A DNA stretch of 62,748 nt, counting the filler. It is 13 parts of 13 records of this genome, joined end to end, with 100 filler letters (N's around TTAATTAATTAA, not from the genome) between each part and the next. Parts side by side here need not be neighbours in the genome. Positions count along the whole stretch, not along the records: positions 4,974 to 9,460 come from SRR15195285_6144; 12 more parts are not named here. One strand, 5' to 3'. Of this stretch, positions 4,974-62,614 are shown in pieces; position 1 is the stretch's first letter, and each line of letters begins with the position of its first letter. Below the pieces are notes generated by a model. It was not told where the DNA came from. It did no database searches and saw only the letters and a list, made by a program, of their open reading frames with translations. Position numbers and translations under genes: made by a program.

Positions 4974-5000
4974 GCTGCTGCTGCTGCTGCTGCTGCTGCT
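4974..5000. repeat. (GCT)9 microsatellite at a contig end; other contig ends carry similar simple repeats
   Basis: Also (GCG)n at 17555-17580, G25 at 31088-31112, (GAGAAG)n from 36157, (GCCCT)n at 40102-40131 and (CTG)9 at 45745-45771. These are typical assembly break points. Confidence 0.9.
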
Positions 5001-5071
5001 TGGCAGGGCGGGGCGGAGATCAGGCGGGCGGGGAGACGGGAGTGGATACAGGTGTGTGGGTGGCGTTCATC

Positions 5072-6065
5072 ATGGCGTTGAACGTGAGCGCTGCACGGCT
5101 TCCCGCGGTGGATGCCCCGGGCCCGCAGATTGCTCCCTACTCGACGGTGCGGAGACACTCTTGATCAGCAGAAGATTGCGACTCAGTCTGCCCACGCTCT
5201 CTGGGTGGAAAGTGACACTAGACTGATCGAGGTGTGTGCTTTCTGTCGGAGCAGGTACTTGGAATGGACAAACACATCGCACGTATGACAGGCTCAGACT
5301 CCTCCCGCTTCCTACAGACAAGGCCCCGGGGCGAAACAGAGCTACAGGAGGTTCGACAGCGTGAGCTATCTTACCTGTGCACCCGTGGCCACGTTGGGCC
5401 GCGGCCTAACACCACGTGGGTCAGCCCGCGCAGCCAAGGCGTGTCCTCTCTACCGACGCTTCGAGGGGATCAGGCAGAGAGCGGGCGCGAGCGGGGTTTG
5501 GCGAGCCTTCGCTCGAGTCGCACGTACCAAGGGAACTGGTCGCAGACGCGCTCCCCTGGTAGCGTGCGCGCTGCCACAGCTCACGGCAGCCGAGCGGCAA
5601 CAGTGAGCAGCCCTCGCAACTCTCGCTCTTTTTTGAGCACGGTGGGAAGCGATGGCCAAGGCGCTGCCACTGCCACGTCCACTCACGACATGAGCGAGCT
5701 CGCCCAAGCACGCAGCTCAATGGGATCCTCAATGTACGCGGCCACGTTCCGCGGCATGCCGAACGAGAGATACGATCGTTCCATGCGCCCGTACGCGGCT
5801 AACGGTGCACGCTCTGAAATCATGGCAACATCCTCACACTCTCTCTGCTCTGGGTCCGGGAAGTTTGGTTATTTCTGATTTTAGAGTATGGCAAAAATGG
5901 ACCGTACCACGTGAATTCAACCAAGTTTCTGCATCGCGTAGAGGTGTGGTTTGTTGGGTTTGGCCAATTTTGGTTACGAGTTTGTGGTAGTGGGCTATAA
6001 ATATGCATGCATGTATGAATAATCAGTAGGCCGGCCGCGGCGGCGTGTGCATGTGTTATCAGTGA
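5072..6065 (+). CDS. Hypothetical spliced Ser/Arg-rich protein; last exon tentative
   Basis: ATG at 5072. Introns 5147-5254 (GTGCGG..CTGAT..CAG), 5805-5884 and probably 5944-6029 give a continuous frame MALNV...YST|VLGMDK...AAN|EYGKNGPYH...VE|AGRGG...*. Confidence 0.5.
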
Positions 6066-6281
6066 GGGTTGCGCCACGCGTCAAGGGTTGACCCCGGGCA
6101 AAGGCCCCCTTCGGCCACAAAAGCAGGTGGGAGCACAAGGGCTGGTGACTATATCTTCGGCCAACTCTGGGCTAGGACTACAACGAGATGGCCTGCCGCC
6201 AGTGTTCACATCAGAGCTACACGTAGCGCATGGAGACCAACCCAAACGAACCAATGTACAGTACAACGGCTTGTCCCGTCC

Positions 6282-9200
6282 TCACTCGATCCACCAGCCC
6301 CAGAATCCTCCGTACTCGCCTAGAGCCTTGTGGCAAGCTGCGGGATCAACTGGACCGCGATGGGGGTTGAACGCAGTGGTCTCATATGCTTCGAGCTTCT
6401 TGTACATTTCAGACAGCCGCGCTGGGAACTTAGCAGCGACGTCGGTCGTCTCAAGAGCTGCAACACAGGTGCCGCTCTAGTCAGGCACTAGATGCAACCA
6501 GAACGACTAGCAAACGCAGAGAAGCTTCACATACGATCGGCTTTGATGTTGTATAAGCACCCATTCCCACAGTGGCCGACGAAATCAGCTGAAATTTCGT
6601 CAGTCGTGCTATTGGGGTAATGTGGACCCATATAGACCGCCTGTGCCACAAAAACCGATAATCAAACTGACCCCCGGGGCAACCTCTCGACACAATGTCA
6701 CAATGTTCGAGGCACACCAGCATGTCCACTCACCTGCTGCACATCACCGGTCAGCAGCTTCCAGATCCCTTGCTCTCCCTCGTCGACAATCAGGCCACTA
6801 ACGGTTGTACATCGCCCAGATGCCTCGAGCGACGAGGCCAACGGAAGTGGCAGTGGTTCATCACCTTTAACGAGTGGGTCGTCCTTTACCGCGACTTCGT
6901 TGTATGATGAGCACAGTGGTGCCGTGCTAATATTCGATGCTCGTGGCTCGGTACCAATCGGAATCTCACGTCGCGGAGACGTGAGATTCTCCCCAAGGAT
7001 CATCAGGTGGTGTGAAATGGCGTCGATCGGGGGTAAGCCAGCGAGAGCCGCCCGGTGGTCGGTGGGATCTACTCCGGCGAGCCTGCAGAAACCAAACAGA
7101 AACAGTCCAGCCATTTCTCAATTACAGACAGACAGTGGCAGAGCTGCTTGGACACGCGTACATGCAGAACGTCGCATAGTTATCCCAGACAGTAACCAGA
7201 CCTACAGGGTCGCATGTTAATTTAGTGTGCCGTGTTGAAAATTTCCAGGGACATGATCATATGGTACATAGGTCCTTACGCAAGGAATTGCGCAAGAATC
7301 ATACCTTCATACTTTACGCCACGACGCGACGCAGGCAGCATGCCACCAGAAATGAAGCCATTGCCTGAACGCAAGCGAAATTGATTCTAAAACAACTCTA
7401 AGACACTGACGGGGAGCGGAGGATATCGAAGGCATTGCATCGGCGGCACATGCACGCAGATTTTAGGGAGTACGCGTGGCTCGTCAACTGTGCTCCGTAA
7501 GACCTCACCTCTGATTCCGCCTTCCCAACTACATTCATGCATGCACCCGTTCACGGATTCGTTAGAGAAGATTCGAGCTGACAACTGACTAGAGAAAGGA
7601 GCGCGTCGTACTTGTTCATCTTGCCACCTTTCAGTGGGTAGTTGTTGGCTACAGCACGACGTGCAGCAACGGTCCACTCAACCACTAAGAACCAGGAAAA
7701 GCTTACTATGTCTCTGAGATTTGAGCCTTCGTACCTCCAGCAGAGCCGTTGTTATATATTGGTCCTCCGTTGTCTGTACCTGCTCCGGACAACGTTAGTG
7801 TAAGAGACTGACAGATTGAGACAGATAGAGCTATCCACCAATGTTGTACGGAGTCGGTACTGAAGACGACGATCATCTCGTCCCACAGTCCCTTAGCTTT
7901 CATCGCCGTAGTGATGTTCCCAACGGCCTCATCGGCGAAATTTACCATTGCGTGGTAGATTTGCCGGTTGTGAGTCGGCTTGTCTGTCTCTTCCATGAAG
8001 GCGAACTTGTCCAGGAAGTGCTGTGGCACCTGGAGAGGCGTGTGAACCTACGACACCAAGGATGCCGCCCTTCGTACCAGATCACGTGCTACAGTAGAGG
8101 CAACTAATCGGCTAACAAACGCAGAGAATTTTCACTTACGATGTGTGGAGCCCAAAACAGAAACAGAGGCGAGGTCGGCGGGTGCTTCTCGACAACCTGC
8201 ATCACCTGCTCCTCGAACAGCGCATCCTCGTAGCCTCCCCACATGTGGTCGCCCATCGGCCCAGGCTGACACTTCTCTGGGTCCACCGCGCCATTTGGCT
8301 GCCCGCGGAAGCAGGTGTTGTTATAGCCGTGACCTGGACCTTCCGGACCACCCTCCGGCATGTGCCAGAGGTCCACGACAGGCCGTGCGTTGGGATGCTG
8401 GAGGCAACCTGTGTACTTGCAGGCAGACGTGCAGTTTCCTGCATTACCTGGAACGTGAATCTTCGACTTCAGGTGGCAAGCATGGATACCCTTGGCGTTC
8501 TCCGTTAGTCCCCAAGCCCAGCCCATGCACTCGGACTCCTTCGCACACTCCGCGCAACAGGCTGCGGCATCAACTGTGTAGGTAGCTTTGAGCTCTGAGG
8601 ACGAGGCGAGGCACACGGACTGGAACAGCTCGCCGTCGCAGCTCTCTTGTGGACCAGGTGGCGGAGGCGGACCAGCCGAGCACGAGCCAACAACCATCGA
8701 CCAGTAGTCGTTATCATGGTGAAAGTAGTTCATTGCGGTTCGGTAGCCTCTCCCATGGGGCGTGTGGTCGGGGGTGGCCATACCAGCATCCCATTTCCCG
8801 AAGCTGTGTGTGAGGTACCCCGCTGCAGAGAGCTTGGTTGCGATGCCTGTCATATTCCTGGGAATGGCGGCGAAACCCGAGACCGGGTCCGAGTGGTTCG
8901 CGATGTTCGGTTCTGCGTTCAGTGGGTTGACGTGGTAAGGGTTCCTGCCAGACTGCAGCGCAGACCTCGTTGGACTGCAGTACTTGTACACGTAGGCGCG
9001 ATCCAGTTCGATTCCTTCCTTGACCATCTGGTTCAGGTTCGGCGTGACGACCTCCGGGTCGGCAGGGATGTGCACACCTCCCGGTCCGATGGTGTCCCGA
9101 TGCCAACCTGCGTCGGCCCAGCCATAATCGTCAAAAAGTAGCATCCAGATGTGCGGCTTCTTCCCCGCCGCAGGAGCGAGCAGCCGCTCCTTGATGCCAC

Positions 9201-9318
9201 CGTTGTGCTCCGCCTCGCCGAAGAACTCGCCGGGCGAGATCCACCGTTCGTCCGCCCCAGGCTCGGCGCCGGCGCAGCAAAGCCCTGCCAGTGCGCTCAT
9301 GATCATCGCGGCGAACAT
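6282..9318 (-). CDS. Formylglycine-dependent sulfatase (family S1, arylsulfatase B/I/J-like), secreted, with an inserted PAN/Apple domain; 10 exons
   Basis: Signal peptide, PHIWMLLFDDYGW, CSPTRSALQSGR (CxPxR), GKWDAG, HIVHTPLQVP, FSTDNGGP, NNYPLKGGKMNNWEGGIRG, CLYNIKADPLE, C-terminal GGFWGWWIE*. Introns: 8139-8048, 7860-7780, 7734-7649, 7611-7529, 7508-7365, 7304-7202, 7161-7083, 6733-6641, 6534-6458. Includes a 20-nt micro-exon at 7509-7528. Confidence 0.92.
6458..8139 (-). repeat. Pair of homologous introns (intron 1 at 8139-8048 and intron 9 at 6534-6458) in the sulfatase gene
   Basis: GTAAGTGAAAATTCTCTGCGTTTGTTAGCCG vs GTATGTGAAGCTTCTCTGCGTTTGCTAGTCG (26/31 identical). Further matching blocks GTTGC.TCTA.TG and GCGGCA..CT..GTGT.G.AG. 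Both follow exonic ATC. Confidence 0.8.
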
Positions 9319-9560
9319 CGCCAGCACGATCCCTCGCGCCGCCGCGGCGATCCGTCCGATCCGCACAGACCCGCCAGGCCGTCCGTCCGCACAGCGCGAG
9401 ACCCGCCAGGCGCCCCATGTGCCCACCAGCTGCAGCAACAATCAGGTCTTCGAATGCATGNNNNNNNNNNNNNNNNNNNNNNNNNNNNNNNNNNNNNNNN
9501 NNNNTTAATTAATTAANNNNNNNNNNNNNNNNNNNNNNNNNNNNNNNNNNNNNNNNNNNN

Positions 9561-12500
9561 CGAATGCTTCCTCCCAGTCGTCCGACGCAAGCGCAACCAT
9601 GACTTCTTTCAGCTCGTCGAAGCCTAGTCCTGGAATGCCGTCACGCATCTCGATGAGACGAAAAGCATCTTGTGCCATAGCAAGTGACACTTGGCTACCA
9701 CCGTTTCTCTCCCACCAGTCTGCAAACTCCTCGAAATCGATCTCGCCTGATCCGTTTTCGTCGATCTCATCAAAAATTTCGGTCACAGTTGGTGTGTACA
9801 CGGTCACGGTGGCGGCGTCCCGAGAGATTCCTGCGGCCTCCAAAAATGGTCCAACGGCGTCGATGCCCGGGGCCAGCCAGCTTGAGGTTCCGTCCACTGG
9901 GTTTACGAAGTAGCTGCGGCCAGACCCAGGATCAGTGGCCTGCTCCCAACTGTTGGACGCTACTGCTATCATTACATCTTTGAGTCCGTAGATACTGACG
10001 CCAGAAGTACCATCTCGCTCCGTTACAAGGTCAAAGGCTCGCTTAGCCAGTTCCAGCGTGCTACCAGCGCCACCACGGCTGGTCCACCACTCACCGAACT
10101 CATGAAAGGAGACACAGCCAGAGCGATCCGAGTCAATACATGCAAAGATCTCCTCTACTGTCGGTACACTGGCTGCATGTAGCGACTTAGCGCTGGTATC
10201 AGCAGCGGGCGACTCGACCTCAAAGGATGATGCAAGCGGATTGATCATTCCAGTAACTGCGTTAGATTTTGGTTGTTTGGTTTCCGTGCGAGCCCAGCCC
10301 GACGGCGATTTGGTCCAGCCGTGCTTGTGCATGTTTTCGACAACCTTCTCACGTTCCAGGTGGATGCGCTGTGTCCGAACATCGGGAGGTTCTTCGAGCT
10401 GCGACATGATTGCCTTCTGCTTGGCGTGCCAGTCGCGAAGTCCGCTGAGGATTTCGTTGAACTCATCACGGTCCACCTCACCAGACCTGTCCGCATCGAA
10501 CTTTGTAAACAGGTCTGCTGCCACCTCCCTCATTTCGTCGGCCATGCCCGAACGGATGGTGCGGATTGTCCACCAGTCTAAAAACTCGTTCAGACTAATC
10601 GTTCCCGACTCATCGACATCAATTTGCTCAAATACCGGCAGTTTCACGCTTGCGATTCCGATCTGCCCTAGCTTTGCGAGCACACCTGTCTTCTTGTTGG
10701 CATCTACCTGGAGGTCGTCCACAAGTTTGCCCACGTCCGCCAACGGGTCGCATTCGTCTCCAGACATGTGCGCCCAAGCAATCTTCCAGCGGTCCCGCGC
10801 AATCATACGGTTAATGTTGGCTGCCGTGCGACTTTTCGTGTGTGCGGTGGCGAGCAAGACTAGAACCACCAAGATTGCACTCATTACCTTTGCAACAAGA
10901 CCCGTCCTTTCCTTCAAATCTGAGTCCACTACTGCCACAAAGTCGTTGTTGATGCTCACTGTGAACATGCTCATTAGCAGCAGAACACTGAAGCTATCCA
11001 ACTGGCTCTCATTCAGGTGCTTGAATGGTCGCACGGTTGCTTGCAGGCAATTGTATAACATCAGCAGCAATACCACCAAAATTCGCCAGTCGGCAAGCTG
11101 TAACGCCACATCTGTCGCACGATTTCGGCTGTTGTAGACGAATGCAATTGCTGTTGGGCGAGTAATCCAAACGACGGCCCACCAGTATCGCTGTCGGCGC
11201 AGAGGGTAGTAGATTACGCTTAGGTAATCTCGTGCCGCGTACTCAGCACTGTGTGCATCCGACCAGTCTTTGGATTCCAACACGACTGCACCCTGCGAGA
11301 AGCCAAATTTGAGATAGGCCTCTATCCGGAGGAGCTTGGAGTGTTCATCCATTCTCTTTGCCATCTGTTTGCCCAGAATCAATGGTAGAGCGATTGCGAA
11401 CGTGGCAAAGATGAGCGCAGCTAATATCAAGTGCACGCTGTGTTCTTCAGTACTACACGATTGCGAAGGGTCGACTCGCAGATGACCGACATCAAAGGCC
11501 CAGGCAGAACAGTCATCCCCTCGCTCGCACGGCCGCGAGAGATCATCTCTGCAGAAGAACAGACTGATCGCCCGCAAATTGATAGCAAACAGCGAGGATT
11601 GCAGCGCGAAAAATAGTGCCATTTTGCCTTGCCAAGGAGCCCTCTTCCACAGGCCTGCCAGGAAGACAACGCAGACGGTGGTGCAAATGTTGTACGCGGG
11701 AATTGAGAACTTCAACATCCAGTCGTAGTAAAACGTGCCAAAGCTGATGCATTTCCCGTCCGTCTGATCTGGCGTATCCGGACTCATGGACACTGCTCCC
11801 GCGAGCTCCGTCACAAAACCGAGTCCACCAAAGGTTTGACTCGGAAGGAGCACCATGGTTTGGACAAAGAACAACGATATCCCAATGATGCTAGAGCTGT
11901 TGTGTATGTCACAGTCGCGGCCTGTGATAATGCGCCGCGACTTGAACAGGAAGAACAAGCACATCAGTAAGTACATGCCGTACGTCACGACCAAACTCTG
12001 CACGTCGAATTCCCCGCAAGGGACACAGCTCCCATCGACCTTCGTGAAATCTTCGTCCGGGCGATCATCTTTGCCGTTCCAGCAGTACGCGCACAGCGGT
12101 CCTGTTGACCCAGGGCGACAGGCGTTCGGAGAGTCTTTCTCGACATCTTGTACGTGGGGGTCTAGTTCTGCGGGGCCATCAGAGTTGCAGTCTGGCGACT
12201 TCGCGCCGTGCTTGCAATACCCGACGCAAGTTTTGTCTGACAAACAGTGTACTGGTTCAAACGGCTCTGGATTGATGCTGCTGTAGTTTGCTAGACTACT
12301 GCTCCCGCCGCCACTCTCGTCACCGGCATAGTGATACACATTGATCCAGAAGCCGGCTTTTGCATATATGTGGTTCGAAATGCCGTCGCAGACTGCACCG
12401 TCTGGGCACTGTTCGCAGTGCATCAGCTTTTGTTTGTCTCCGGAAGTTCCATTGACAAAACGTGAGTGATAATTCACGAAATAGTTGTGCTCACAAATGC

Positions 12501-13492
12501 ACTTCGTCTGCCCGCTTGTAAGTGTTGTGCTATGGTCATCACAACCCTCACAAAACTCCTGACTATCGTCCGGGATCTTGCCTATTGGACATTTTGTACA
12601 AAATCCAGCAGCGCCGGCATGACCGTCTGGACACACTTCGCAGGCAGTTTGGTTGACATTCGGAGCTTTGCCGAGGTCACAGGTTTCACATGCAGTCGTA
12701 TTTGCTGACCTATATTTACCGTCCGCACAGGGCACGCAAAGCGTCGGAGTTTCATCTGAGTTTGGTGCTTTGCCCTCAGAACACGTTTCGCATGCAACTC
12801 CGTCCACAGTGACACTACCGGTGGGACACTTGCGGCAGATATGGTTCGGCAGGGAGATATTGCCTGCAGCTGTGCTAGCTGAAATTTCCCCCGGAGAGCA
12901 CGCTATGCATTGGCCAGTGGATGAAGCGCTGCCAGGAGGACACTCCTCGCAGGAACTCCGATTGGGTGCTGGCTGCTTTCCTGAACTGCACGTTTGACAA
13001 ACACTTTGGTCGTCTACCGTGATCGCGCCCAGCGCGCATGCAGCGCATCTCCCAGTGATAGTTGCTTCTCCCATTTCGCACTGGACGCACACTGTTCTGT
13101 TCTGCCCCTGTTCCTTTCCTGGCGGGCAAACTTCACAGCGCGAAGAGCTCTCGTCAGGGATTTTGCCCTCACCACACTCAGAGCAAACTCCGGCGTATGT
13201 CGTGGCCGAGCCACTCGGGCACTCCTCGCACGTGGTCCCATCTGATGCTGGCTGCGTGCCATCATCGCACTCGCCGCATCGTGTTTGGCTGTCCTGTGGA
13301 ATCTTGCCTGGGGCACACTGCTGGCACATTCCTGTGTTTGGTGTGGCCGTGGCCTTCCCAGCATCACACTCTGTGCAATTGTCATGCGTGCTTAACGGTT
13401 GCTTTCCAGCATCGCACACAATGCAGGACCCCTGATCCTCATCAGTAAACCTACCCGGTCCACATCCCTCACAGTTGCCTGTGGTGGTGGCG
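9561..13492 (-). CDS. Receptor-like membrane protein, copy 1 (partial at both ends): Cys-rich CxxC repeats of ephrin-receptor-like/GCC2-GCC3 type, ~9 TM helices, EF-hands and WW domains
   Basis: Frame open across the whole contig. CxxCxxGK repeats, GPLCAYC, hydrophobic helices with YYPLRRQRYWW and RPF motifs, EF loops DVDESGTISLNE, DADRSGEVDRDE, DSDRSGCVSFHE, DENGSGEIDFEE, and WW domain WEQATDPGSGRSYFVNPVDGTSSWLAP. Confidence 0.85.
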
Positions 13493-13592: not shown

Positions 13593-16500
13593 CGAATGCT
13601 TCCTCCCAGTCGTCCGACGCAATTGCAATTACAACTTCCTTCAGCTCGTCAAAGCTTAGTCCTCGCATGCCATCGCGCATCTCGATGAGACCGAAGGCTT
13701 CTTGTGCCATAGCCAGTGACACTTGACTACCACCATTTCGCTCCCACCAGTCTGCGAACTCCTCGAAATCGATTTCTCCTGATCCATTTTCGTCGATCTC
13801 ATCGAAAATTTCAGTCAGACTTGGTGTGTATACTGTGACGGTGGAGGCGTCACGAGATATTCCTGCTCGCTCCAGAAACGGCCCGACAGCGTCGATGCCT
13901 GGTGCCAGCCAGCTTGAGGCTCCACTTGCTGGATTGACGAAGTACTGGCGGCCAGATGCAGGATCAGTGGCCTGCTCCCAGCTGTCGGACGCCACTGCGA
14001 TCATTATATCCTTGAGACCGTGGATATTGACGCCTGGGGTACCATCCCGTTGTGCAACGAGGTCGAAGGCTCGCTTGGCTAGTTCCAGCAAGCTACCAGC
14101 TCCGCCGTGGCTGGTCCACCACGTGCTGAACTCGTGGAAAGAGACGCTGCCAGAGCGGTCTGAGTCAATGCACGCGAAAATCTCCTCCACTGTGGGCACA
14201 CTAGCTGCCTGTGCCACCTTAGTGCTGACAGATGGTGCCACAGCACCGGGAACACCGGCTGCAGACGACTCGACTTCAAAGGGTGATGCAAGCGGGTTGA
14301 TCATCCCGGCCACTGAGCCAGTTCCCGTGCGGACCCAGCCCGAAGGCGACTCAGTCCAGCCGTGCTTGTGCAAGTTTTCGACGACCTGCTCACGCTCGAG
14401 CCGGATGCGCTGCGTACGAGCTTCGGGAGGTTCATCGAGCTGTGACATCATTGTCTTCTGCTTGTCATGCCAGTCGCGAAGTCCGCTGAGGATTTGGTCG
14501 AACTCGTCTCGGTCTACCTCGCCAGACCCGTCCGCATCAAATTTTGTGAACAGGTCCGTTGCCACCTCCCTCATTTCGTCGGCCATACCTGTGCGGATGG
14601 TGCGGATTGTCCACCAGTCCAAAAATTCGTGCAGACTAATCGTTCCCGACTTATCGATATCAATTTGCTCAAATACTGGAAGCTTCACACTCGCGATTCC
14701 AATCTGTCCTAGTTTTGCCAGCACACCTTTCTTCTTGTTGGCATCTACCTCGAGATCCTCCACGAGTTTGCCAACCTCTGCCAACGGATCGCACTCGTCT
14801 CCAGACATGTGTGACCAAGCTGTCTTCCATCGGTCGCGCGCGATCATACGCGTGATATTGGCTGCTGTGCGGCTTTTAGATTGTGCTGTAGCGAGTAAGA
14901 CCAGGCATAACAAGATTGCAGTCATTACCCGGGCGACAGTGCCTGTCGTGACCTTCAAGGTGGAATCTACGGCTGTAACAAAGTCATTGTTGATGCTCAC
15001 TGTGAACAGGCTCATCAACAGCAGCACACTGAAGGCGTCCAGCTGACTTTCATTCAGGTGCTTGAAGGGTTGCACGGTTGCTTGAAGGCAGTTGTACAGC
15101 ATGAGCAGCAACACCACCAAGATTCTCCAATCCGCAACTCCAAAGGCCACGTCAGTTCGACGGTTTCGGCTGTTGTAGACAAATGCAATTGCTGTGGGAC
15201 GAACGATCCAAACGACCGCCCACCAGTATCGCTGTCTGCGAAGAGGATAGTAAATTACGCTTAGGTAGTCTCGTGCTGCGTACTCAGCACTGTGCGAGTC
15301 TGCCCAGTCTTTGGATTGCAGCACGACTGCCCCCTGCTCGAAGCCATATTTGAGGTAGGCCTCTATCCGGAGCAGCTTGGAGTGTGCATCCATTCTCTCT
15401 GCCATCTGTTTGCACAGAATCGATGGTAGAGCAAATGCAAACGTGGCGAAGATGAGCACGGCTAATGTCAAGTACACGTAGTAATCGCCTTTGCGGCACG
15501 ATTCAGAAGGGTCGACTTTCAGATGACCGACTGACGGCGAGAGGTCGTCTCTGCAGTAGAACAGACTAATCGCCCGCAAATTAATTGCAAACAGCGAGGA
15601 TTGCACTGCAAAAAACAGGGCCATTTTACCTTGCCAAGGAGCTCTCTTCCATAGGCCTGCCAAGAAGACAACGCAGACCGTGGCACAAACATTGTACACC
15701 GGAATTGAGAACTTCAACAGCCAATCTGTATAAAAATGGCCCGTGCTGATACACTTCCCGTCCGTCTGATCTGGTGTGTCCGGACTCATGGACACTGCTC
15801 CTGCAAGCTCCGTCACAAAACTGAGTTCACCGAAGGTTCGACTCGGCAGAAGAACCATGGTTTGGACGAAGAACAATGAGATACCAATGATGCTAGAGCT
15901 GTTGTGGATGTCACAGTCACGGCCTGTGAGAATGCGCCGCGATTTGAATAGGAAGAACAAGCACATCAGCAAGTACATGCCATACGTCATGACAAAACTC
16001 TGCACGTCAAACTGCTCGCACAAGACACAGCTCCCGTCGACCTTCACGTAATGTTTGTCTGGACGACCGTCTACACCGTCCCAGCAGTACGTGCACAGCG
16101 GTCCTTCTGAACCCTCTCGACACGCGTTGGGGGAGTCCTGTTGTACGAAGGGGTCTCGGTCTAGTCCCTCGGGTGGGCCAGCATCGCAGTACGCAGTCTT
16201 CTGGTGCTCACAATACCCGACGCAAATTTTCTTCGACAAACAGTGAACCGGTCTAAACAACTCTGGGTTGATCGTGCTAGTGGTGGTGGTGGTGTGATTC
16301 ACATTTATCCAAAACCCGGCTTCGGCGTATATGTTGTTCGAATCTGCCGGACAGACCGCACCAGTTGGGCACTTATCGCAGCACGTAAGGCAGATCGAGT
16401 TTTCGTCTCCGTTGGAAGTTCCATTGTCATCGTCGGCAAAACGTGAGTAATTCAGGAAGTAACCATTTTTACAAACACACCTGGTCGCGCCGGCTCCACG

Positions 16501-17454
16501 TGTTGTGCTGTGCGGTGGGCATTGCTCACAATTGTTCTGTGCTTTATCTGGAATTTTGCCTTCTGCACAGGTTTTGCATGATCCTGTGGCCCCAGCCTTG
16601 CCTTGTGGACACACTTCACAGTCAGTTCGATTCGAATTGGGTGCTTTACCGACAGGACACTCTATGCATGCAGTCGCATTTCTTGACCTATATTTACCAT
16701 CTTTGCACTCCACGCATTGCGTCGGACTTTCGTCGGAGTTTGGTGTTTTGCCCTCAGAACACACTTCGCATGTAACCCTATCTGCAGTGATACTCCCAGT
16801 TGTACACTTGTTGCAGGTCAGACCGTCATCCACTGGCACTTGCCCTGCAGGGCATGGACTGCATTCGCCAGTAGACGAAGCGCTGTCAGGAGGACACTCC
16901 TCGCAGGCACTCTTGTTGGTTGCTGGGTGTTTTCCTGCGGTACACATTTCACAGCTACTTTGGCCATTTTTCGTGATCCATCCACTGGCGCACGCAAGGC
17001 ATGTCCCAGTGATAGTTGCCTCTCCCGCTTCGCACTGCACGCACGCTGTTCTGTTCTCCGCTTGTTCCTTCCCTGGCGGGCAAACTTCACATCGCGAAGA
17101 GCTTTCGACCGGAACTTTGCCCTCATCACACGGAGAACAAACTCCGGCGTATGTCGTGGCGGAGCCAGGCGTGCAGTCCTCGCACGTAGTCCCATCTGGT
17201 GCTGGCTGCTTGCCAGAATTGCACTCACCACACCGGGTTTGACTATCCTGTGGAATCTTGCCTGAGGCACACTGTTGGCATATACCTGTGTTTGGGATGG
17301 CCGTGGCCTTCCCAGCGTCACATTCTGCGCAATTGTCGTGCGTGCCTAACGGTTGCTTTCCAGCATCGCACAGCATGCAGTCCCCTTGCTCGTCATCGGT
17401 TATCTTGCCCGGACCACATGCATCACAGTTGCCTATGGTGGTGGCGCTTCCGAC
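13593..17454 (-). CDS. Receptor-like membrane protein, copy 2 (partial at both ends), homologue of copy 1
   Basis: Same architecture and collinear with 9561-13492. TM, EF and WW regions are very similar; the Cys-rich and juxtamembrane regions are more divergent, with indels. Confidence 0.85.
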
Positions 17455-25173: not shown

Positions 25174-26976
25174 TCACGATGGCCAAACTAGACCACTGCG
25201 GCACGGCACAAGCCGTGCTGGCTCTGCGAGCCAGCTTGTCAGCGCCTCAAGCGCAGCTGTATTCCCCGCCTCGTCCCATGGCGTTTTCCAGCAGCTTGAA
25301 TTTGCTGCGACCTCCTGCCAGCTCGTTGTATTGGCCATCCACGCGCTGAAGATCGCCTTATTGTAAGTGGCCACGTCCATAGCGACTTTCGGGTAGTCCA
25401 CCTGGCTCAGGATCGAACGCTGCAACATCGCAACCGTGGCAGCATACTCCATCTCTCCTTCTGGCGTCGCCACGAGATTGTTCTTCTCATCCGGATCTTG
25501 ATCTAGATCAAACAGCTGATTAGGCACCTGAGAACCATTGCCCCATACAATCAGCTTCAGCGTGCTGGTGCTATTGCTCTGCTGCAGTTGCTGCACCACG
25601 AGAAACCAGCTCATCGCAATGTTCTTTCCATGAAACTGACTGACAATGAAGCTCGGACGGCGGCCAGAACTTTCCTGCCTCCCAGCACTAGCTGCCCCAC
25701 GCGCTAGTGGCGAGGAGGTAGATGCGACCATCAGTGGGAGCAGCGATGCGCCATCGAGGCTCTGTGGCCGCTGCGCTTCGCGCAACTGCGCCAGGTCAAG
25801 AATAGTGGGCATAATATCAATGAGCTGCGTCGGAGCTGAGATGACCTGTGCCCCTCCTGCGTGGCGAGGTACTCCAAATTGCCGTAGCTGCTGCAATGGC
25901 ACTGAAACGACCATCGGGACGGAGGCTGAGGCATCATATGGGGTCATCTTGTAGAACTGCTGATGCTCAAGCTGCATGTCGCCATGATCGCTCGTCACGA
26001 TCCAAACCGTGTTATCCCACGCGTCGGCAGCCTTCACAGCATCGATGAACGCGCCGACCATGGCGTCGAACTCAGCAATCATCGCAAGATAAATCCGTCG
26101 GATCCTCCGACGACGCTCTGTCGAGTAGAATGTTGCGGCAGTCTCTGCCGACGGAATGCAGCCTTTGAGCATCGAGCTCTGGAAGGCGCATGGGTGCATA
26201 TCTTCCAGCGGCTCCCACTCGGGGACTGACACCTTGTCCGGATCGATGGAATCATACCAGAACTGGCTCGTGACGTACGGCGGGTGGACGATGTTCATTC
26301 CCGCGTACGCAAACCACGGGATCTGGGTGGCTGACGCGGATGCGTTTGCGAGCCACGCGGTCGTGGCGGCGGTGGTTGCCCAGTCCGTACTGTGCGCGCT
26401 GCCGTTAGCTCCACGGCTCCCACCCGGCGTCACGGTACCATTGCTGGCACAGCCACCACCCGTGACCTCGCTGGCCCAGCCGCCGTTGCTGGTGTTGTAC
26501 GGGAACGCCACCTGCATCGTCCAAAGCGCAAGGTCCGTGTGCTGCGCGCTCTCGCGGTGGCCAGCGGTGTCCCAGTCACGCTTGCCAAAGACACCGACTT
26601 TGTAGCCCGCGCGCTCTAGCACCTGGTCAACGCGGTCGTCGTAGCCGGACGGCAGGCCCTCGTAGTTGTTGTACACCCCGCCTACACTGATCGCCCCGTG
26701 GCGATGCGGGATGTTCGACGCGTGCCGTCCGCTCCAGAACGTCGCGCGCGAGGGGCAGCAGACCGGGGCATTTGCATAGTGTCTTCGGAACTCAAACCCA
26801 GTAGCCTGCAGCTCGCGGATCGCAGGCAGAGCCAGTGCGCCACCCGAGTAGCCTGGTGCCCAGGTGCGGCCGTCCGTGCTCTCCACGACTAAGAAAAGGA
26901 CGTTCGGTCGGCGTGGGCGCGCAGCGGCGGCATCGTTGATAACAGCAGCACACGCAGCCAGCGTCAGCAGCAGCAT
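25174..26976 (-). CDS. ARSK-like: Arylsulfatase K-like S1 sulfatase, secreted, intronless
   Basis: Signal peptide. PNVLFLVVESTDGR, APVCCPSRATFWSG, YNNYEGL, FGKRDW..GH, TSDHGDMQLEHQQFYKMTPYDASASVP and QLFDLDQDPDE parallel the ARSK motifs (SDSFDGR, PICCPSR, WNNFKGL). Confidence 0.85.
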   Translation of the reverse strand: MLLLTLAACAAVINDAAAARPRRPNVLFLVVESTDGRTWAPGYSGGALALPAIRELQATGFEFRRHYANAPVCCPSRATFWSGRHASNIPHRHGAISVGGVYNNYEGLPSGYDDRVDQVLERAGYKVGVFGKRDWDTAGHRESAQHTDLALWTMQVAFPYNTSNGGWASEVTGGGCASNGTVTPGGSRGANGSAHSTDWATTAATTAWLANASASATQIPWFAYAGMNIVHPPYVTSQFWYDSIDPDKVSVPEWEPLEDMHPCAFQSSMLKGCIPSAETAATFYSTERRRRIRRIYLAMIAEFDAMVGAFIDAVKAADAWDNTVWIVTSDHGDMQLEHQQFYKMTPYDASASVPMVVSVPLQQLRQFGVPRHAGGAQVISAPTQLIDIMPTILDLAQLREAQRPQSLDGASLLPLMVASTSSPLARGAASAGRQESSGRRPSFIVSQFHGKNIAMSWFLVVQQLQQSNSTSTLKLIVWGNGSQVPNQLFDLDQDPDEKNNLVATPEGEMEYAATVAMLQRSILSQVDYPKVAMDVATYNKAIFSAWMANTTSWQEVAANSSCWKTPWDEAGNTAALEALTSWLAEPARLVPCRSGLVWPS

Positions 26977-37050: not shown

Positions 37051-40000
37051 TTACAGGTTCCGCTTCTTCAGCGCCTCGAGCCGAGATGTTTGCGTATCAC
37101 GCTGGCGTTGCGCCGCCGATAGATTGTCACCATTGATAATCTCAATTATTCGGCCATCGGCTGCCATCTCGAATGCTCGCCAAGTTCGTCTGCTGCCACC
37201 ACCGATTCCAGGTTCCTCGTCCGTACTCTGCTTCTTTGTCTGCATGACTTCGTCGATATAAATTTTGTGCAGCCTACGACGCCACATCACACCGGCACGA
37301 ACATTACGGGGGGCCAAACATGCCACCCAAGTTGCGACAGAGATGGGTGCAGGACGGAATCACTCTGCTGCGTACGTTTCTGTTTTGCTCGGATCTTTCT
37401 TGTCAGTCAGAATCATGTCGGTGATGACTACTTCTTTGACTACACCGCGCTTTCGTGCGATTTGGTTGGCGTGCGAGCAAAGGTGTTCCTGTGGCAACAC
37501 ACAGCAATTTGGGGCACCACCATCAGCAGCAACATCAGAGCAGGAATCGCAGAAGGAAGGCAGGCAGTGTGCCAAGTGGGCACGTATGGAACACGGCTGC
37601 AGGTGCATGCTCGGGCATAGGCGTATGGACGAATCTTCAGATGCGCATGTACCAGTTCTGCCCAGCTGATCTCGTCGTCCTCAGGCACGAAGAAATCTCC
37701 TTCTTGGGCCTCTGAGCGTCTCAAGATGTCCTGCACTTGTGCGTTGCGATGAAGGTTCACCAGGTAGAGGTATGACGAGCAGAACGTCAAGAGACAGTGG
37801 ATCCCAACCAAAAAGATTGTGATCCCAATTCCGACTTTGCCGTCACCTTCGGTAACTGCAGAACACGCACAGTTCACTTTTGAGCATGGCTGCCCTGAGT
37901 GGGCGCCTGATGAAACTTGGATGGTGGCGTTGCGTGTAAGGCGCTGCATATGGAACGTACATAGGAACGCGTTGTGACATTTGAAAGCATCGCCTTGGCT
38001 CCAGTTAGCGTGGTAGATATCGTTGAGGAGGATGATAAAGGGGTCGAGGAACGTGACAACGCACCACGCGAGCAAGAACATTGAATAGGCATCCGGAAAT
38101 TGTCCGACTATTCGCATCGACAGCCACGCGCAGGTGACGAACAAGATCTGAGCGATCCACACTGAACTCATACCAATGACTGTGACCGCCATCTCGGTGT
38201 AAGGATGCAATTGCTGCGTATCGTAGGCTAGCACTACTCCAGATTCACGGATTGCAAACTTTGTAATCGGCACGCCAAGTGCCTCCAGATAGAGCAACTG
38301 TCCAAAGTAATGAAGATAGTGCCGCAAAACAAACGCAGAGAGGATGAGCATTATCTGCCCCAAGAATGAAGTCGTCCGCCACTGTGTTGCGTAAATCTCT
38401 GCCGCCAGGTTTCGTCGCACTACTTCCATCTGATCTAGCGGCTTCTTCGTGCGCAGCAGACGCGAACTTTCGCGCGGCTGAACGCTGAATCGGTAATCTT
38501 CCAGATGCAGCTCTGCTCGAGCCGCACGGTCCGCGGTGACCACACCTCCACGCGAACCATGGTGTCGTTTGTCCCCCGCTGCTTGCCGTTTCCCAAGGGC
38601 CAAGACGCCGTCATCCTCATCGAGCGGCTTCAATCGCAGCACCTCCTGCGCATATTCAAGGCGCTGGTCAAACTCAGTGCTGTTGTCGTCTTTCTGCCTG
38701 GCGGCGAGCTCGATATCGAAGTAGAGGTTGCAGAGCCAGTTGTCGAGATCCTGGCTGACTGCCTGCTCGACCTTATAGTATTTGTCCATCCCCGGATTCA
38801 CCTCACCGTACAGCATTGTCGTCTTGAATTCGCCTTGCACGTAACGAAACGTCGCGTCGCAGACTGGAAAGGCGCCCCACGCTACGACTTCATCACGGGC
38901 CTGGAGTCGACCCTTCAGCATGACCAGCTCGAAGACGAAACACATTGCGGGCTGCAGTTCCTCCTCTGACGGGAGCACAAACTCCAATGGTTGATTGAAA
39001 AAAATCTCGGCGTCGTCTCGCGGCCTGCCGGCGTGCTGTTTCGGTCCAGTCTTGTCGTCAAGCTTCCAGTGCTCTGTCTCTTCCGCGCCGCTCGTGGCAG
39101 CTGTTAGAACCTTTCCACCGAGTCGGTCGTACAGCTTCACCTGGACGCTGTAGCGTCCGCGTAGAACTTTGTCGCGGACAACTCGTAGTGCTCTGATCGT
39201 AAGTACCAGTGGCTGAGGCGTGGCACCCCAGTCCGCAGACTGGGTCGCTTCCGTCATCGCAAAATTTGCACGGGCCCTCTCGGTGATTCCGATGTTGCTT
39301 ATCACATCTTTTTTCCGCGCCTTCAGCGCATTTGCGAGAGTGTCCGCAACCTTACCAAATGCAGCCTTCAGTTTGCCGTGCGCGGCGTGCTCCTTCTTGC
39401 GGAGCTGTGCCCACAACATACGCATGAGGTCAGCGTAGTTGCAACCAGAACTAGTAGCGTGGCGCGTAGCAAGAACAGCAGAGAGCGGCCACAAACACGA
39501 ACGAATTCGCGGATACTACGCACCGACGCTTCCATCCCACGAATCGTCTTGGCAGTTTCTGAGTTTTGCTCACGGATGCGGTCGAGTGCGGCCGCTTCCA
39601 GCCGTCGGAGAGCGGCGTTGGCCTCGGTGTGCTGCTGCGCACTCGACACAGCCTGTTGGTGTCTTTCGTCATCGCGCCGGTCAGAGATGAACTGCAAGGT
39701 GTCGAGCGGCACACTGCCCACTCGTGTGGTCAGCAGGCCCACCTCGCGCTCAAAGTCACACAGTACTGTCTCCTGCTTCACGGCAACGGCCACCCTGGCC
39801 TCCTGCACCCACGAGCAAATGCCGTGAGCAACACACTGCCAAGAACACAGCAAGTGTAGCAGACTGTGGGCCGTCTATCGTGTTCGTGGCGAAAACCAGT
39901 GCAACTTTCAACCACGGAAAGAGACCGCAACGCCAAGAAAACTGTCTGTTCGGACAGCAATTTACCTCTGCGTTGAGCTCGCTATACTTCGCGCCGATCT

Positions 40001-59848: not shown

Positions 59849-62614
59849 TCAATTAGACCTGAGCGTCATAACGAACCGACTGAGAATTTCTGTGTCCTCC
59901 GTGTCGAATGGGTACCTGGCGGTGGCAATCCAGCGGATTGGTTCCTGTTAGAACTTGCGAATCACAATGGGTGCATAAAGACCAGAGATTTGGCGCACCA
60001 CTGGGGGTAGTTCGTATTCCTGTACACACCATTCGCAATATCATTCAACGTTGTTCCTACATGCCCGCGGTGCATACAGCACAAATGATTGTGTATGAAG
60101 GTAGTGGGCGTACCATATCTGGTTCTGAACATTGTAGTGCCAGCCGCCTTCTTCGATCCAATGCTCGATGAGCGAAGTCGTGTTGTCCTTCGTAGAGTTG
60201 TCCAACGCACTAGGAAATGGCGATAGCAGCCCTGCAGACACCACCGGCACATCCAGCGAGACGATCTCCATCTCAACCCCAGCGGGTAAAGAGTCACCAT
60301 CCTTCGCGTCAGCATGTTTATAAACTAATGCACCATCTGGTCCGAGCGCGTGCAGGTGTACTGCGCCATGCTCTACAACATCAGTCGGCGCAACGTCACT
60401 TGAGCCGTAGTAGCGCAGCTTCCACCCGCTTGGCTCGGTAGTCGCAGTTTTGAATGAAACCCACAGCGCCTCCGGCAAGCGGCTGGCAGTCTTGTTAACC
60501 GCTGAGACATTCAGTTCGAGCCCTGTTGCAGTCAGCACTACTGAGGTGAAGATCCTCTGAGGGGCACCGTTTGTTATGTAGAGGGGTGCAGCGAACTCAG
60601 ACTCGGTGGCAAATGCGCAGCTGTCCGTGCTCCGCCACAGTTTTGTCAGGCTCGGCGAGTGCACCCCCCATCCACCAAAAACATCGCCACCGTATGCAGA
60701 GCTCATGTTTGGTTTGGCAAAATTGTGGCACCCAATCGTCTCCGTCGCACCGTCCGTGTCGTTGAGGCAGTTGCCAGTGTACAACGAATCAAATGCAGTG
60801 AAGTTGTGCTCGGACAGAGTCTGGTACCTAACCTGCCCAAGCCTCGCATCACTGGACAATTTACCACCCACTTGGATCCGATCTTTTTCGTACTTGACCG
60901 AAGCCACGGAGCCATCAGAAGCAAATGCGATAGTGGCCGCATGAGCTTTGCAGTGGAACTCCCTATGCAAATCGCCCACCAGCTCCAATTGCTTCATCTG
61001 TTCCTCGCGCGCAGCAGCCAGCTGCGTTGAGGACAAGGCAGCGAGTGCGTCTAGTAGCTCCGAGCGGAAGGCACCATGCTGACCAGCTAGATTGAGGTTG
61101 AGTACAGCGTTTTTTACGTACGAGCGCTGCTCCTGCCAGCTCTCAATAGTCAGCTGGTAGTTCGCTCTGTTCAGATTCTCTTGCAGCTGCTCGTTGCTCC
61201 AGTTGCCATAATCACCTAGATAAAAAGTCGTGTCAAGCCCCCACGTGTGCTCTGGTATGAGTGACAGTAACCGGTCAAAACGGACGAAGTCGATGGAGCT
61301 GACGTTGCAGCGGCCCGCTGAAATGCATGCAAAGCGGCGACGGCCAACCTCGCGGAACTCGCTGTTCTTACGGGGATCTGAGGCAGTTGTCAGCGTACAG
61401 CGAGTCAAGTGCAGTGGAGTTGTGCTCGGACAGAGTCTGGTACCTACCTGTTGGAATTCCGTACAGCCAGGTGTCACCGATTTCCTGCCGCACAATGGGC
61501 AGCAGGTGGCGCTCGTCTTCGGCCTGTGCGAAGAAATCGTCAAAGTTCGATGCAAAGACGTGCGCTTCCGGGTGCTCGCTGCGTAGCATTGCTATGGTCG
61601 AGTTGAATATGTCAGCGGATGGACCAGAGTTGTCCCTATTCCTGCAATAGCAAGAAGTACGGTGCGCCAACACACAATGAGTGGGTGGACTGAAACTCAG
61701 GCCTGCAGCGAGCGGCGCGCCACACGTTCCCAAGCCGACTGCTCAAAAGTATCGGAAGGGCGGGCTCACCAAGCACAATATAGCCCAACCCCAGAAGGCA
61801 GCACGTGTAGACCACTACCGTATCCATGGTCTGCCGTCATCAGGACCTCTGCCCGAGATGCCTCGTCGACCCAACGGAAAACGCCCATGTTGCCCTTGCT
61901 GGGAGTATGGCTGCCTGGAAGAACCGGGTGCCCAACCGTTGACCCTCCAGAGCCAAGCGAGATATACTTTACGCCATGCTTGTTGAGGAGAGGGAGGATG
62001 GCCCGGGACATGCCAGTCTCATCGCGCTGAGAGAAAGTCCTGGGCCGCCGCACGCCCAACTCTTCAGCCAGACGCGAGCTAATCGCCAGGCTGGCCTCGA
62101 ACTGGGATGCATCGTAGCTCTCTGGACAGCTAGAGTGTGGAAACGCCTGAAAGAATATGTCGCCCTGTGCCACGGCTGCTTTGAACTGTGCAATCGTCGT
62201 TGCGTTGGGACAGCTCAACAGTAGGTCGCTCGTGTGGCCCACGCGCCAGTCGTTCACGCCGGACTTGGCGCAGTCCAAGAAGAGAGCAACTATCCATGGC
62301 TGCGCCATGTAGATATACCGATCGCCCCCTGCCGCACGCGTAGCATCGGCCATCGCTGCCGCGCGCGGAAAAAACACATTGAAGTACTCGGATGTTACGT
62401 TGGCGGCCAGTGGCATGCAGCGCTCGCCGTTTGGGGAGAACAATCCCTCGCACCGCTCGGGCCCACCAGTGCCGTCGTTCCAGGAGCGCTCATTGAAACC
62501 GACGTCCAAATGGTTCGAGAAGACGACATGAATCTTGGTCACTTTAGCAGAGGTGGTCGCCGTCGTAATCGTCGCCGCCAACCACATGGCGATGGCGCCT
62601 TTCGTGAACGACAT
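59849..62614 (-). CDS. Secreted DUF5054 / GH38-N-like glycoside hydrolase; 5 exons
   Basis: IHVVFSNHLDVGF, QRDETG, FRW, DNSGP, IGDTWLYGIPTDP, EHTWG, SWQEQR, NKTASRLPEALW, NQIWNTNYPQWYPF. Introns 61769-61642, 61447-61378, 60113-60020, 59998-59916. Includes a 21-nt micro-exon at 59999-60019. Confidence 0.85.
60762..61447 (-). repeat. Dispersed direct repeat: intron 61378-61447 is a copy of coding sequence 60762-60832
   Basis: Manual alignment gives 63 of 70 intron positions identical plus one 1-nt gap. Confidence 0.95.

Follow-up and report, generated by a model that had tools for sequence, protein, structure and literature searches.

Two introns of a single sulfatase gene resemble each other along their length, and the question arises as to where such introns come from. 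The origin of spliceosomal introns is a long-standing open question, and few new introns have a source that can be named; a 2012 review (PMC3443670, Table 1) counts 14 events under intron transposition and 5 under break repair. The pair lies in a window of 62,748 nt, which is the whole stretch of DNA that was analysed, and the original prediction had explained it as the product of a recently gained mobile or locally copied intron.

The sulfatase gene and its similar introns

The gene is located on the minus strand (6282..9318) of the contig that occupies positions 4974-9460 and comprises 10 exons and 9 GT..AG introns. The model is based on ORFs, an in-frame CDS of 2199 nt (732 aa plus stop), Pfam matches, and RNA contigs that join exons across introns 1-7. 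Exons 1-5 occupy 9318-8140, 8047-7861, 7779-7735, 7648-7612 and 7528-7509, and exons 6-10 occupy 7364-7305, 7201-7162, 7082-6734, 6640-6535 and 6457-6282, all on the minus strand. The protein exhibits a signal peptide, a PAN-like insert and, in exon 1, the sequence CSPTRS, which we take to be the formylglycine motif C-x-P-x-R. Exon 1 also contains the Pfam matches Sulfatase (PF00884, 4.4e-14) and PAN_4 (1.1e-4). With a Sulfatase domain and the C-x-P-x-R motif, the protein has the features of a type I sulfatase, and its closest relatives are arylsulfatase-like. Among the matches listed, the gene or part of it was found in 19 public runs from 16 studies, in seawater data. Some DNA joints from run X1 (6452>6612, 7650>7862 and 7649>8742) belong to records of less than 90% likeness with short sides.

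Intron 1 (8048..8139, minus strand) is a phase 0 intron of 92 nt, GTAAGT..TAG, and intron 9 (6458..6534, minus strand) is a phase 1 intron of 77 nt, GTATGT..CAG, with the sequence CTGAC 29 nt before the acceptor, presumably the branch site. The predicted interval was correctly bounded, with intron 9 ending outwards at 6458 and intron 1 at 8139. With regard to splicing, an RNA contig from the public runs (X16, record 16) skips 92, 81, 86, 83, 144, 103 and 79 nt at introns 1-7; at intron 1 exactly 92 nt are skipped, with CT..AC on the plus strand. Introns 3-7 are also skipped by an RNA contig from X14. In record 9 of X14, the listed piece stops at 6457 and the other 55 nt fit exon 9 by depth bins, which suggests that intron 9 is spliced out as well. 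Intron 1 is also present at the DNA level, being spanned by contigs from X1 and X2.

Introns 1 and 9, which are 1605 nt apart, are homologous beyond chance. As had been noticed at first, 26 of their first 31 nt are identical, and the alignment confirmed further blocks up to the acceptor: 39 of the first 49 columns match, and in the full alignment 57 columns match, 19 do not and 17 contain gaps. On the 3' side, the BLAST alignment spans the first 52 nt only, and the blocks GCGGCA and GTGT.G.AG up to the acceptor come from the global alignment. The comparison with unrelated pairs and shuffled sequences, which could have undone the claim, strengthened it instead. The local score of the pair is 46, compared with at most 19 (median 14) for the remaining 35 intron pairs of the gene, and none of 5000 dinucleotide shuffles with splice sites kept reached this score (maximum 31, z = 13.4). 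In self-BLAST, the E-value of the pair is 4e-5 for the whole window and 2e-7 for its own contig. Of the 9 introns, only introns 1 and 9 could be traced to a significant source within the contig (46 versus a null maximum of 27). The likeness begins at ATC|GT, whereas the exon flanks do not align. The trinucleotide ATC does precede both introns despite their different phases; these exonic copies (8140..8142 and 6535..6537, minus strand), adjoining introns 1 and 9 upstream, are candidates for a priming microhomology.

The introns in close and distant relatives

The absence of introns was read from gene-caller read-throughs in relatives, in which the protein runs straight across the site. In a 91%-identical relative, the stretch APHIVHTPL..VFSTDNGGP is unbroken in all seven cluster members that extend to this site, and these therefore lack introns 1 and 2. 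Five of the eight members of this relative's C-terminal cluster give LYNIKDDPLETTDV unbroken and thus lack intron 9. Introns 3 and 8 have been kept, as the read-throughs of this relative enter the former and emerge from the latter. Because this relative lacks introns 1, 2 and 9 but retains introns 3 and 8, introns 1 and 9 appear to be young.

A wider comparison points the same way. Intron 1 is absent from P0002, P0149-P0151, P0153-P0155, P0003 (61%) and P0007 (55%), intron 9 from P0121, P0156, P0158, P0159, P0160 and P0126 (64%), and intron 2 from P0002 with its cluster-mates and from P0007. P0007 and P0126 are more distant homologues whose contigs show other read-through introns, yet the sites of intron 1 and intron 9 are empty. 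P0002 and P0160 are each listed with an 8382-nt contig, and P0150 and P0156 each with a 12196-nt contig. The remaining three of the eight members of the C-terminal cluster (P0157, P0161 and P0162) carry an intron at the position and in the phase of intron 9, for which reason there may have been loss in some lineages, or intron 9 may be older than intron 1. The sister lineage P0144 keeps intron 1, and its read-through is VSEASLRLLAD where the window gives VSENSLRLLAD. The corresponding triplet must be GCN in P0144 and is AAT in the window and GCT in intron 9; the older intron 1 would therefore have been closer still to intron 9.

Scoring of presence and absence in orthologues thus supports a recent gain of introns 1 and 9, as originally claimed, with the intron 9 position occupied in three sequences. 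The likeness of whole introns without their flanking exons and the empty sites in close relatives are the signs expected of intron propagation. Further lineage-specific introns were observed in this gene family (P0143; P0141/P0145/P0147/P0148; P0122; P0128), which gains introns very fast. One cluster-mate of a relative is labelled Picozoa; a non-exhaustive literature search returned nothing on introners in Picozoa in the texts that it covered. Within the window, contigs 3 and 4 are 77.6% alike, and they differ by gaps that are all multiples of 3, which carry no information on the presence or absence of introns.

Intron 2 (7780..7860, minus strand, 81 nt), which is absent from the close relative, is unlike introns 1 and 9 in sequence. 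The 8 nt at its start (GTACCGAC) and the first 8 nt of exon 3 (GTACAGAC, 7779-7772) form a direct repeat with 7 of 8 positions identical, and its cut in the RNA contig placement can slide by 4. This repeat looks like a target-site duplication.

A predicted DUF5054 intron and proposed local copying

Self-BLAST of the window revealed only two short non-simple direct repeat pairs. Both are intragenic and both involve an intron; the first consists of introns 1 and 9, and the second was found in a DUF5054 gene on the minus strand. Intron A (61378..61447, 70 nt, GTAGGT..CTGAC..CAG) is predicted from sequence and splits GDTWLYGIPT|DPRKNSEF. Its removal restores the frame between the ORFs 61368-61742 and 60041-61591, and its site is unbroken in all 12 inspected homologues. 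Exon block B (60763..60835, ..GQVRYQTLSEHNFTAFDSLYTGNCLN..) lies 615 nt downstream in the same gene and aligns with intron A in 66 of 73 columns (90.4%, E = 3e-20). Block B falls inside the Pfam DUF5054 match, and its YQTLS..Y is nearly invariant in alignment A1. As four of the six substitutions in intron A would alter residues that block B shares with relatives, block B is the source; two more changes in intron A yield GTAGGT and CTGAC. The trinucleotide CAG is duplicated at both junctions of intron A. Judged by its sequence, intron A is a copy of a coding block that became a predicted GT..AG intron, and a putative intron of such origin cannot be either mobile or reverse-spliced. Two weak intra-contig pairs (12938/13217 and 20707/22712) were set aside, as they look like coding repeats or chance.

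Both copied pairs have exactly 3 nt in common upstream (ATC and CAG, respectively), their flanks being otherwise unrelated, and neither is a tandem duplication, given the 615 nt and 1605 nt that separate their members. Since the second of the two short repeat pairs likewise lies within one gene and led from an exon to an intron, the evidence leans towards local copying. Between the two origins first offered, a mobile or a locally copied intron, we therefore favour the latter, homology and youth having been borne out for introns 1 and 9.

Our preferred reading, to which we assign a probability of roughly 0.45, is that introns 1 and 9 arose by locally templated, microhomology-primed insertion during DNA repair, as part of a recent lineage-specific burst of intron gain. 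Both would be ordinary U2-type introns of common origin, one having been derived from the other or both from one lost source. A break in a coding exon would have been repaired with filler DNA copied from a nearby template in the same gene, and synthesis would have been primed by a few bases of microhomology, namely the ATC before both introns. As donor, branch site and acceptor would already have been part of the copied piece, the piece would have been spliced out and the gene would have survived. How the break was repaired, whether ATC and CAG primed the synthesis, and which of introns 1 and 9 was copied from the other are matters of inference.

Several observations argue against local copying of the DNA. 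Both introns are missing from the same relative, which therefore offers no source for the first copy. Beyond GT, introns 1 and 9 are not flanked by a direct repeat of the kind present at intron 2 and intron A. The homology between introns 1 and 9 ends exactly at the intron ends, for which DNA copying needs selection among events, whereas reverse splicing would give it automatically. With regard to priming by ATC or CAG, a 3-nt match has a chance of 1 in 64 in each case, and CAG is the usual exon end before a donor.

Introns attributed to break repair, described in 2009 and in other cases, contain inserted filler DNA and often short flanking direct repeats (PMC3443670, section 9). Intron 2, with its 7/8 repeat, and intron A, with CAG at both ends, resemble these, and filler of identifiable origin is the key evidence. 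For intron A, such filler is found in block B, together with the CAG at both junctions; for introns 1 and 9, the source of each is the other, with the 3-nt ATC at the 5' junction and no 3' repeat, and in the lack of flanking repeats they differ from the break-repair introns that have them. Moreover, the fillers identified in PMC3443670 are mitochondrial DNA, whereas here the source would lie within the gene itself, at a distance of 0.6-1.6 kb, and would in one case be an intron.

Local copying of introns has also been described in Oikopleura dioica (Denoeud et al. 2010), with a mechanism given as unknown or as reverse splicing in the accounts of PMC3443670, PMC4122922 and 10.1101/051292. As in that species, the new introns are lineage-specific and match another intron. 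In contrast to what those accounts report, a survey of a tunicate, the present case concerns a protist and one pair, accompanied by an exon-copied intron that points to a mechanism at the DNA level. In the model of Rogers (1989) and Hellsten et al. (2011), as summarised in PMC3443670 and 10.1101/051292, tandem duplication of an AGGT-containing exon segment creates an intron. Intron A resembles the outcome described there in being duplicated exon sequence with a duplicated ..AG|GT.. context; it differs in lying 615 nt upstream of its source rather than in tandem, and introns 1 and 9 differ in being copies of intron sequence.

A broader proposal, which we regard as tentative and somewhat unlikely in its full extent, is that this uncultured marine protist lineage is amid a burst of intron gain in which broken exons are repaired with a copy of whatever part of the same gene, intronic or coding, lies nearby, and the spliceosome removes the insert.

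Alternatives and significance of the pair

An unlikely alternative is a low-copy or old dispersed family of introner-like elements, in which introns 1 and 9, and perhaps an intron of an OFCC1-like gene, would be separate mobile insertions, two of which came to lie in one gene by a chance landing or a local hop. Introners are defined by the resemblance of introns to one another (PMC9860276), and according to the figures given there they are commoner in aquatic species (17.0% versus 2.6%). The rapid gain of lineage-specific introns by several relatives in the sulfatase family and the TSD-like repeat of intron 2 would also fit such a family. Like the introners of Gozashti et al. 2022 (PMC9860276) and the elements of Micromonas, Aureococcus, Pelagomonas and dinoflagellates, introns 1 and 9 are similar as far as the donor boundary, were gained rapidly in particular lineages and belong to an aquatic single-celled host. 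In section 15 of PMC9860276, introners are defined by similarity that starts no more than 5 exonic or 10 intronic bases from each of the two boundaries and by at least four similar introns in genes with dissimilar proteins. Families usually have hundreds of members in unrelated genes, many with TSDs or TIRs, whereas the 62 kb contain two copies in one gene, with lengths of 77 and 92 nt and neither type of repeat, and one non-significant candidate.

That candidate is the OFCC1-like intron (39405..39523, minus strand), which lies on another contig and had been described at the outset as a weaker match. The match is really present: 20 of 23 nt agree with intron 9 in the sense orientation, with a collinear TCTCTGC..TTGCTA block. 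Its score of 31 makes it the best match of intron 9 outside the pair (next best 24), and the fact that this best match is another intron, in sense, speaks for a family. The CTGAC block of this match is presumably the usual branch-point consensus. Significance is lost after correction, as the score was reached by 13 of 20000 shuffles per comparison, or about 0.1 expected chance matches for two query introns against some 100 introns in the window (a rough guess, uncounted), and the nhmmer pair profile gave E = 1.8. If real, the match would mean spread between genes.

No further significant copy of introns 1 and 9 was found in the 62-kb window by self-BLAST or the nhmmer pair profile, and neither the pair profile nor a three-intron profile revealed a new member there. 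Two to three copies per 62 kb would nevertheless scale to many genome-wide. Of the two possibilities first named, intron copying or an introner family, the former is favoured and the latter not established. The suggested inspection for TSDs and TIRs, which are frequent though not obligatory in introners of the DNA-transposon type, went against mobility, as introns 1 and 9 lack terminal inverted repeats and share nothing but GT between their flanks. In length they do not exceed the other seven introns (79-144 nt), and their folds are not unusually stable (z-scores of -1.25 and -1.51). The other new introns, intron 2 and intron A, are unlike them, and two hits of a rare family in one 3-kb gene would need a local bias anyway. 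The putative introners of Pelagomonas, as reported in 10.1101/2021.10.25.465678, are grouped in length around 210 bp and have TIRs. Fungal introner-like elements, as portrayed in PMC3609843, are similarly short, lack TSDs and TIRs, and decay into ordinary introns; in that description they also have hundreds of copies, exceed regular introns in length and have a stable predicted structure, none of which is seen for introns 1 and 9.

Public data were also searched. A metagenome scan with GTGAANNTTCTCTGCGTTTG gave 9 loci, all pattern-only, with no GTA before and no extension; as the scanned collection is without the window's own two copies, this result has no bearing on dispersal. No match to GTGAANNTTCTCTGCGTTTG was found in the viral contigs scanned. 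In the DNA runs X1 and X2 (80% likeness), the depth over introns 1 and 9 is that of single gene-carrying contigs (7.77 and 7.41 over intron 1). Neither intron 1 nor intron 9 drew any further contig from these runs; contigs show presence, and a copy as diverged as the pair may be missed. The depth speaks weakly against a young high-copy family.

Reverse splicing, which we consider quite improbable, would have re-inserted the excised intron RNA elsewhere in the same transcript, followed by reverse transcription and recombination of the cDNA with the gene. This would account for a homology bounded exactly by GT and AG without a TSD, the only sequence features that set it apart here, and for the presence of both copies in one gene, the own transcript being the nearest substrate. 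The process has been proposed for similar introns of Oikopleura and Mycosphaerella in the discussions of PMC3443670 and PMC4122922, and the former describes its demonstrations as confined to non-physiological conditions. Reverse splicing gives no reason to expect ATC upstream of both copies, and a cDNA that recombines with the gene would tend to remove introns nearby, whereas introns 2 to 8 remain between the copies. As intron A copies an exon, a second mechanism would also be needed in the same genome. Other grounds for the likeness, namely gene conversion between ancient introns that the relatives have lost, a shared functional RNA or regulatory element, or chance, are very improbable: the introns at the intron 9 position and phase in P0157, P0161 and P0162 would suit old introns, but the sites are empty in P0007 and P0126, Rfam gave nothing at E <= 1 for 6200-8300 and no significant structure was seen, and chance is excluded by the shuffles. 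We know of no precedent for gene conversion between two 80-nt introns 1.6 kb apart with everything between them unlike.

The copied intron pair is a new case of an already known kind of intron gain; knowledge of sulfatases is unchanged, and no new kind of element is shown. A sample of 62 kb has nevertheless provided two events with a source, one intron having been copied from another intron and one from coding sequence elsewhere in its gene, and a third new intron with a target-site-like repeat. Because close relatives differ at intron positions and occur in public seawater data, the mechanism can be tested directly by comparison at the population level. If local copying during repair is correct, new introns would be born from arbitrary local DNA rather than from specialised mobile elements, and the many sister lineages found together in seawater metagenomes would constitute a natural time series of intron birth, polishing (GTAGGT, CTGAC) and decay.

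Homologous introns in a sulfatase gene and their setting

The sulfatase gene (9318-6282, minus strand of contig 4974-9460) comprises 10 exons and encodes a protein of 732 aa with a signal peptide, a CSPTRS motif and a PAN-like insert. Its intron 1 (8139-8048, minus strand, 92 nt, phase 0) and intron 9 (6534-6458, minus strand, 77 nt, phase 1) were found to be homologous, as stated in the original prediction. The alignment reproduced the 26 identities in the first 31 nt that had been noticed there and extended them to 39 of the first 49 columns; the full-length alignment counts 57 matches, 19 mismatches and 17 gap columns. The local alignment score of this pair is 46, whereas the remaining 35 pairings of the nine introns reach at most 19, and none of 5000 dinucleotide shuffles with the splice sites kept matched it (maximum 31, z = 13.4). 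A search of each of the nine introns against both strands of the remaining contig gave an above-shuffle source for introns 1 and 9 alone (46 versus a null maximum of 27). The gene model also agrees with the earlier remark that exonic ATC precedes both introns and that their phases differ; beyond this ATC, the exon flanks cannot be aligned.

With regard to splicing, contigs of four public runs were aligned to 6200-9400. A poly-A RNA contig (record 16 of run X16) skips exactly 92, 81, 86, 83, 144, 103 and 79 nt at introns 1-7, all skips ending in CT..AC on the plus strand, and the metatranscriptome X14 shows joints at introns 3-7. The listed piece of X14 record 9 (235 nt) stops at 6457. As the depth bins of 1.40 and 1.75 correspond to 44 and 55 nt at the depth of this record (3.4), its remaining 55 nt fall on exon 9, directly beyond intron 9, and from this depth table we infer that intron 9 is spliced. 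Both introns 1 and 9 are in place in the DNA contigs of runs X1 and X2. Four of the nine introns start with GTAC, which is an unusual donor (minus-strand donors at 7860, 7734, 7611 and 7161, reading GTACCG, GTACGA, GTACGA and GTACGC), and all four are spliced in the RNA contigs. Exon 8 contains a 29-nt palindrome (6961-6989).

The 62,748 bases of the window form 13 short contigs (3.4-9.4 kb, 53-61% G+C) with spacers of the form N..TTAATTAATTAA..N, and their genes are eukaryotic, including formin FH2, RING, WW and UBC domains, a PKS-like protein and two sulfatases. The sulfatase gene is present, whole or in part, in 19 of the 23 listed public runs, from 16 studies; nearly all are labelled as seawater or marine metagenomes and one as rhizosphere. 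EukProt contains one protein identical to that of the window. The label Picozoa sp. is attached to a cluster-mate of a relative of another gene of the window, which hints that the source may be an uncultured marine protist of this kind. The second sulfatase (25177-27033, minus strand) is a single unbroken ORF of 619 aa, and P0008, a 631-aa relative of the studied sulfatase from a 4082-nt contig, lacks all nine introns, provided that this contig is DNA. Contigs 9561-13492 and 13593-17446, each coding for an EF-hand/WW protein of about 1300 aa, share 77.6% identity across about 3985 nt, with all gaps multiples of 3; they are either paralogues or come from two related genomes that were assembled together. 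Other features include an imperfect inverted repeat (49930-50129, 209 nt, 67%), a 35-nt palindrome (45890-45924, 91%) and an identical simple repeat at two contig ends and one contig interior (4974-5000, 45745-45771 and 58534-58560), which appears as poly-Q, poly-A or poly-S in the ORF table and may be an assembly break point.

Occurrence of the introns in relatives

The proteins of relatives in public collections are prokaryote-style gene calls on metagenome contigs, in which an intron-free junction is read through and an intron gives stop codons. In a relative with 91% identity in exon 1, all seven members reaching the site (P0002, P0149, P0150, P0151, P0153, P0154 and P0155) show ..FLFWAPHIVHTPLQ..VVFSTDNGGPIYNNGSAG unbroken and then foreign sequence, which indicates that this relative lacks introns 1 and 2 and has intron 3. 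Of the eight members of the corresponding C-terminal cluster, five show ..GCLYNIKDDPLETTDVAAKYP.. unbroken and therefore lack intron 9, while P0160 and P0158 start with the intron 8 tail (MVVWPAQ/AVYMGP) and thus possess intron 8. P0002 and P0160 each come from an 8382-nt contig, and P0150 and P0156 each from a 12196-nt contig; each of these pairs probably shares one contig. The scoring of homologues that had been proposed extends to more distant relatives: the intron 1 site is empty in P0007 (55%) and P0003 (61%), that of intron 2 in P0007 and that of intron 9 in P0126 (64%), and all three contigs show other read-through introns.

The remaining three of the eight C-terminal members (P0157, P0161 and P0162) start with ..IA/LETTDV, which corresponds to an intron at the place and phase of intron 9, so that intron 9 is common to several lineages. 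It may be older than intron 1, and was possibly lost in the intron-free lineage. P0144, from a sister lineage, has intron 1, with the read-through VSEASLRLLAD versus VSENSLRLLAD in the window. This requires GCN at the AAT of the window, and the aligned codon of intron 9 is GCT; the earlier form of intron 1 was therefore even nearer to intron 9. Judged by these gene calls, introns 1 and 9 are young. The recent gain originally proposed fits the sites found empty in 7/7 and 5/8 members, but is qualified for intron 9 by the three members that carry an intron there.

Relatives at about 90% identity have introns that are missing from the window gene. P0143 has an extra intron after ..DAGMA, and the sequence of P0144 resumes with MATPDH, so that at least ATGGC must be repeated at the two ends of this intron. 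Extra introns are also found after ..MATP in P0141, P0145, P0147 and P0148, and within exon 10 in P0122. Intron 2, absent from the 91% relative, starts with GTACCGAC (7853-7860) and the next exon with GTACAGAC (7772-7779, minus strand), a 7/8 direct repeat resembling a target-site duplication; its cut can slide by 4 in the contig alignment. Turnover of intron positions in this group is very fast, and the sulfatase gene family is, on these comparisons, gaining introns fast.

An exon-derived predicted intron in the DUF5054 gene

Self-BLAST of the whole window yielded only two short non-simple direct repeats, namely the intron 1/9 pair and a pair in the DUF5054 gene (60763-60835 versus 61379-61450; 73 nt, 90.4% identity, E = 3e-20). 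A permissive contig-by-contig search added only three direct pairs, all weak, which resemble coding repeats or chance similarity. Intron A (61447-61378, minus strand, contig 59290-62748) spans 70 nt, runs from GT to AG, has CTGAC 17 nt ahead of the CAG, and divides ..QEIGDTWLYGIPT/DPRKNSEF.. with a frame shift of one. Block B (60763-60835, minus strand, same contig) is coding (..GQVRYQTLSEHNFTAFDSLYTGNCLN..) and lies inside the Pfam DUF5054 match, its YQTLS..Y residues being nearly invariant among homologues. The site of intron A is unbroken in all 12 homologues inspected (P0128 to P0134, P0137, P0164, P0169, P0171 and P0175). Four of the six substitutions in intron A would alter residues that block B has in common with relatives, and one further change together with a single deleted T yields CTGAC and GTAGGT. 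Both junctions of intron A carry CAG. These features indicate that part of an exon was copied to a place 615 nt upstream, where it has every mark of an intron and is a predicted one. Introns of sister lineages at about 90% identity follow DPRKN, SLYTG and LGDYG in P0128, P0171 and P0169/P0164, respectively; none is present there in the window.

Origin of introns 1 and 9

Our leading reading, tentative at a probability of about 0.45, is that introns 1 and 9 would represent locally templated filler DNA from break repair. A single process would then cover both the intron 1/9 and the A/B pairs, and would explain their intragenic location and the common 3 nt (ATC and CAG, respectively) that immediately precede the copies. 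However, introns 1 and 9 have no flanking repeat, and their homology coincides exactly with the intron ends. This reading is in line with the break-repair gains described for Daphnia and a few others in section 9 of PMC3443670.

It is doubtful that the two introns belong to a low-copy or old introner-like family, which would agree with the rapid gains and with a weak third match in intron 2 of the OFCC1-like gene (39523-39405). The latter, on another contig, shares a collinear TCTCTGC..TTGCTA block with intron 9, as originally noticed; the two also agree in 20 of 23 nt, and it is the top match of intron 9 outside the pair (31 versus 24 for the next best). When the OFCC1-like intron was shuffled 20000 times, 13 of the shuffles nevertheless reached its score, and a profile of the pair gave E = 1.8 with nhmmer; about 0.1 such chance matches are expected, as a rough guess for two query introns and about 100 window introns. 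Its CTGAC block matches the usual branch-site consensus. The relation to intron 9 is at most suggestive. No further copy was seen in the window, and introns 1 and 9 showed neither the TSD nor the TIR that had been looked for, nor excess length or a stable fold. The at least four members in unrelated genes by which section 15 of PMC9860276 delimits introners are missing from the present data.

Re-insertion of the intron into its own transcript by reverse splicing is somewhat less probable still: it yields exact ends with no repeat, but does not predict the ATC and cannot copy an exon into an intron. Chance, ancient introns or a shared functional RNA, the last without an Rfam match, are together very improbable.

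In Oikopleura and Mycosphaerella, homologous introns are known at new positions, and PMC3443670, PMC4122922 and 10.1101/051292 term them local propagation or intron transposition, and the intron 1/9 pair is of the same kind. Introners are described as widespread in aquatic protists in PMC9860276. Given these systems and Daphnia, the present case adds to a known phenomenon; a limited literature search found no such report for this lineage. Its value lies in a clean event, of which the copy, the source and the empty site can each be seen, in the exon-derived companion intron A within the same window, and in the many co-occurring sister lineages with differing intron content.
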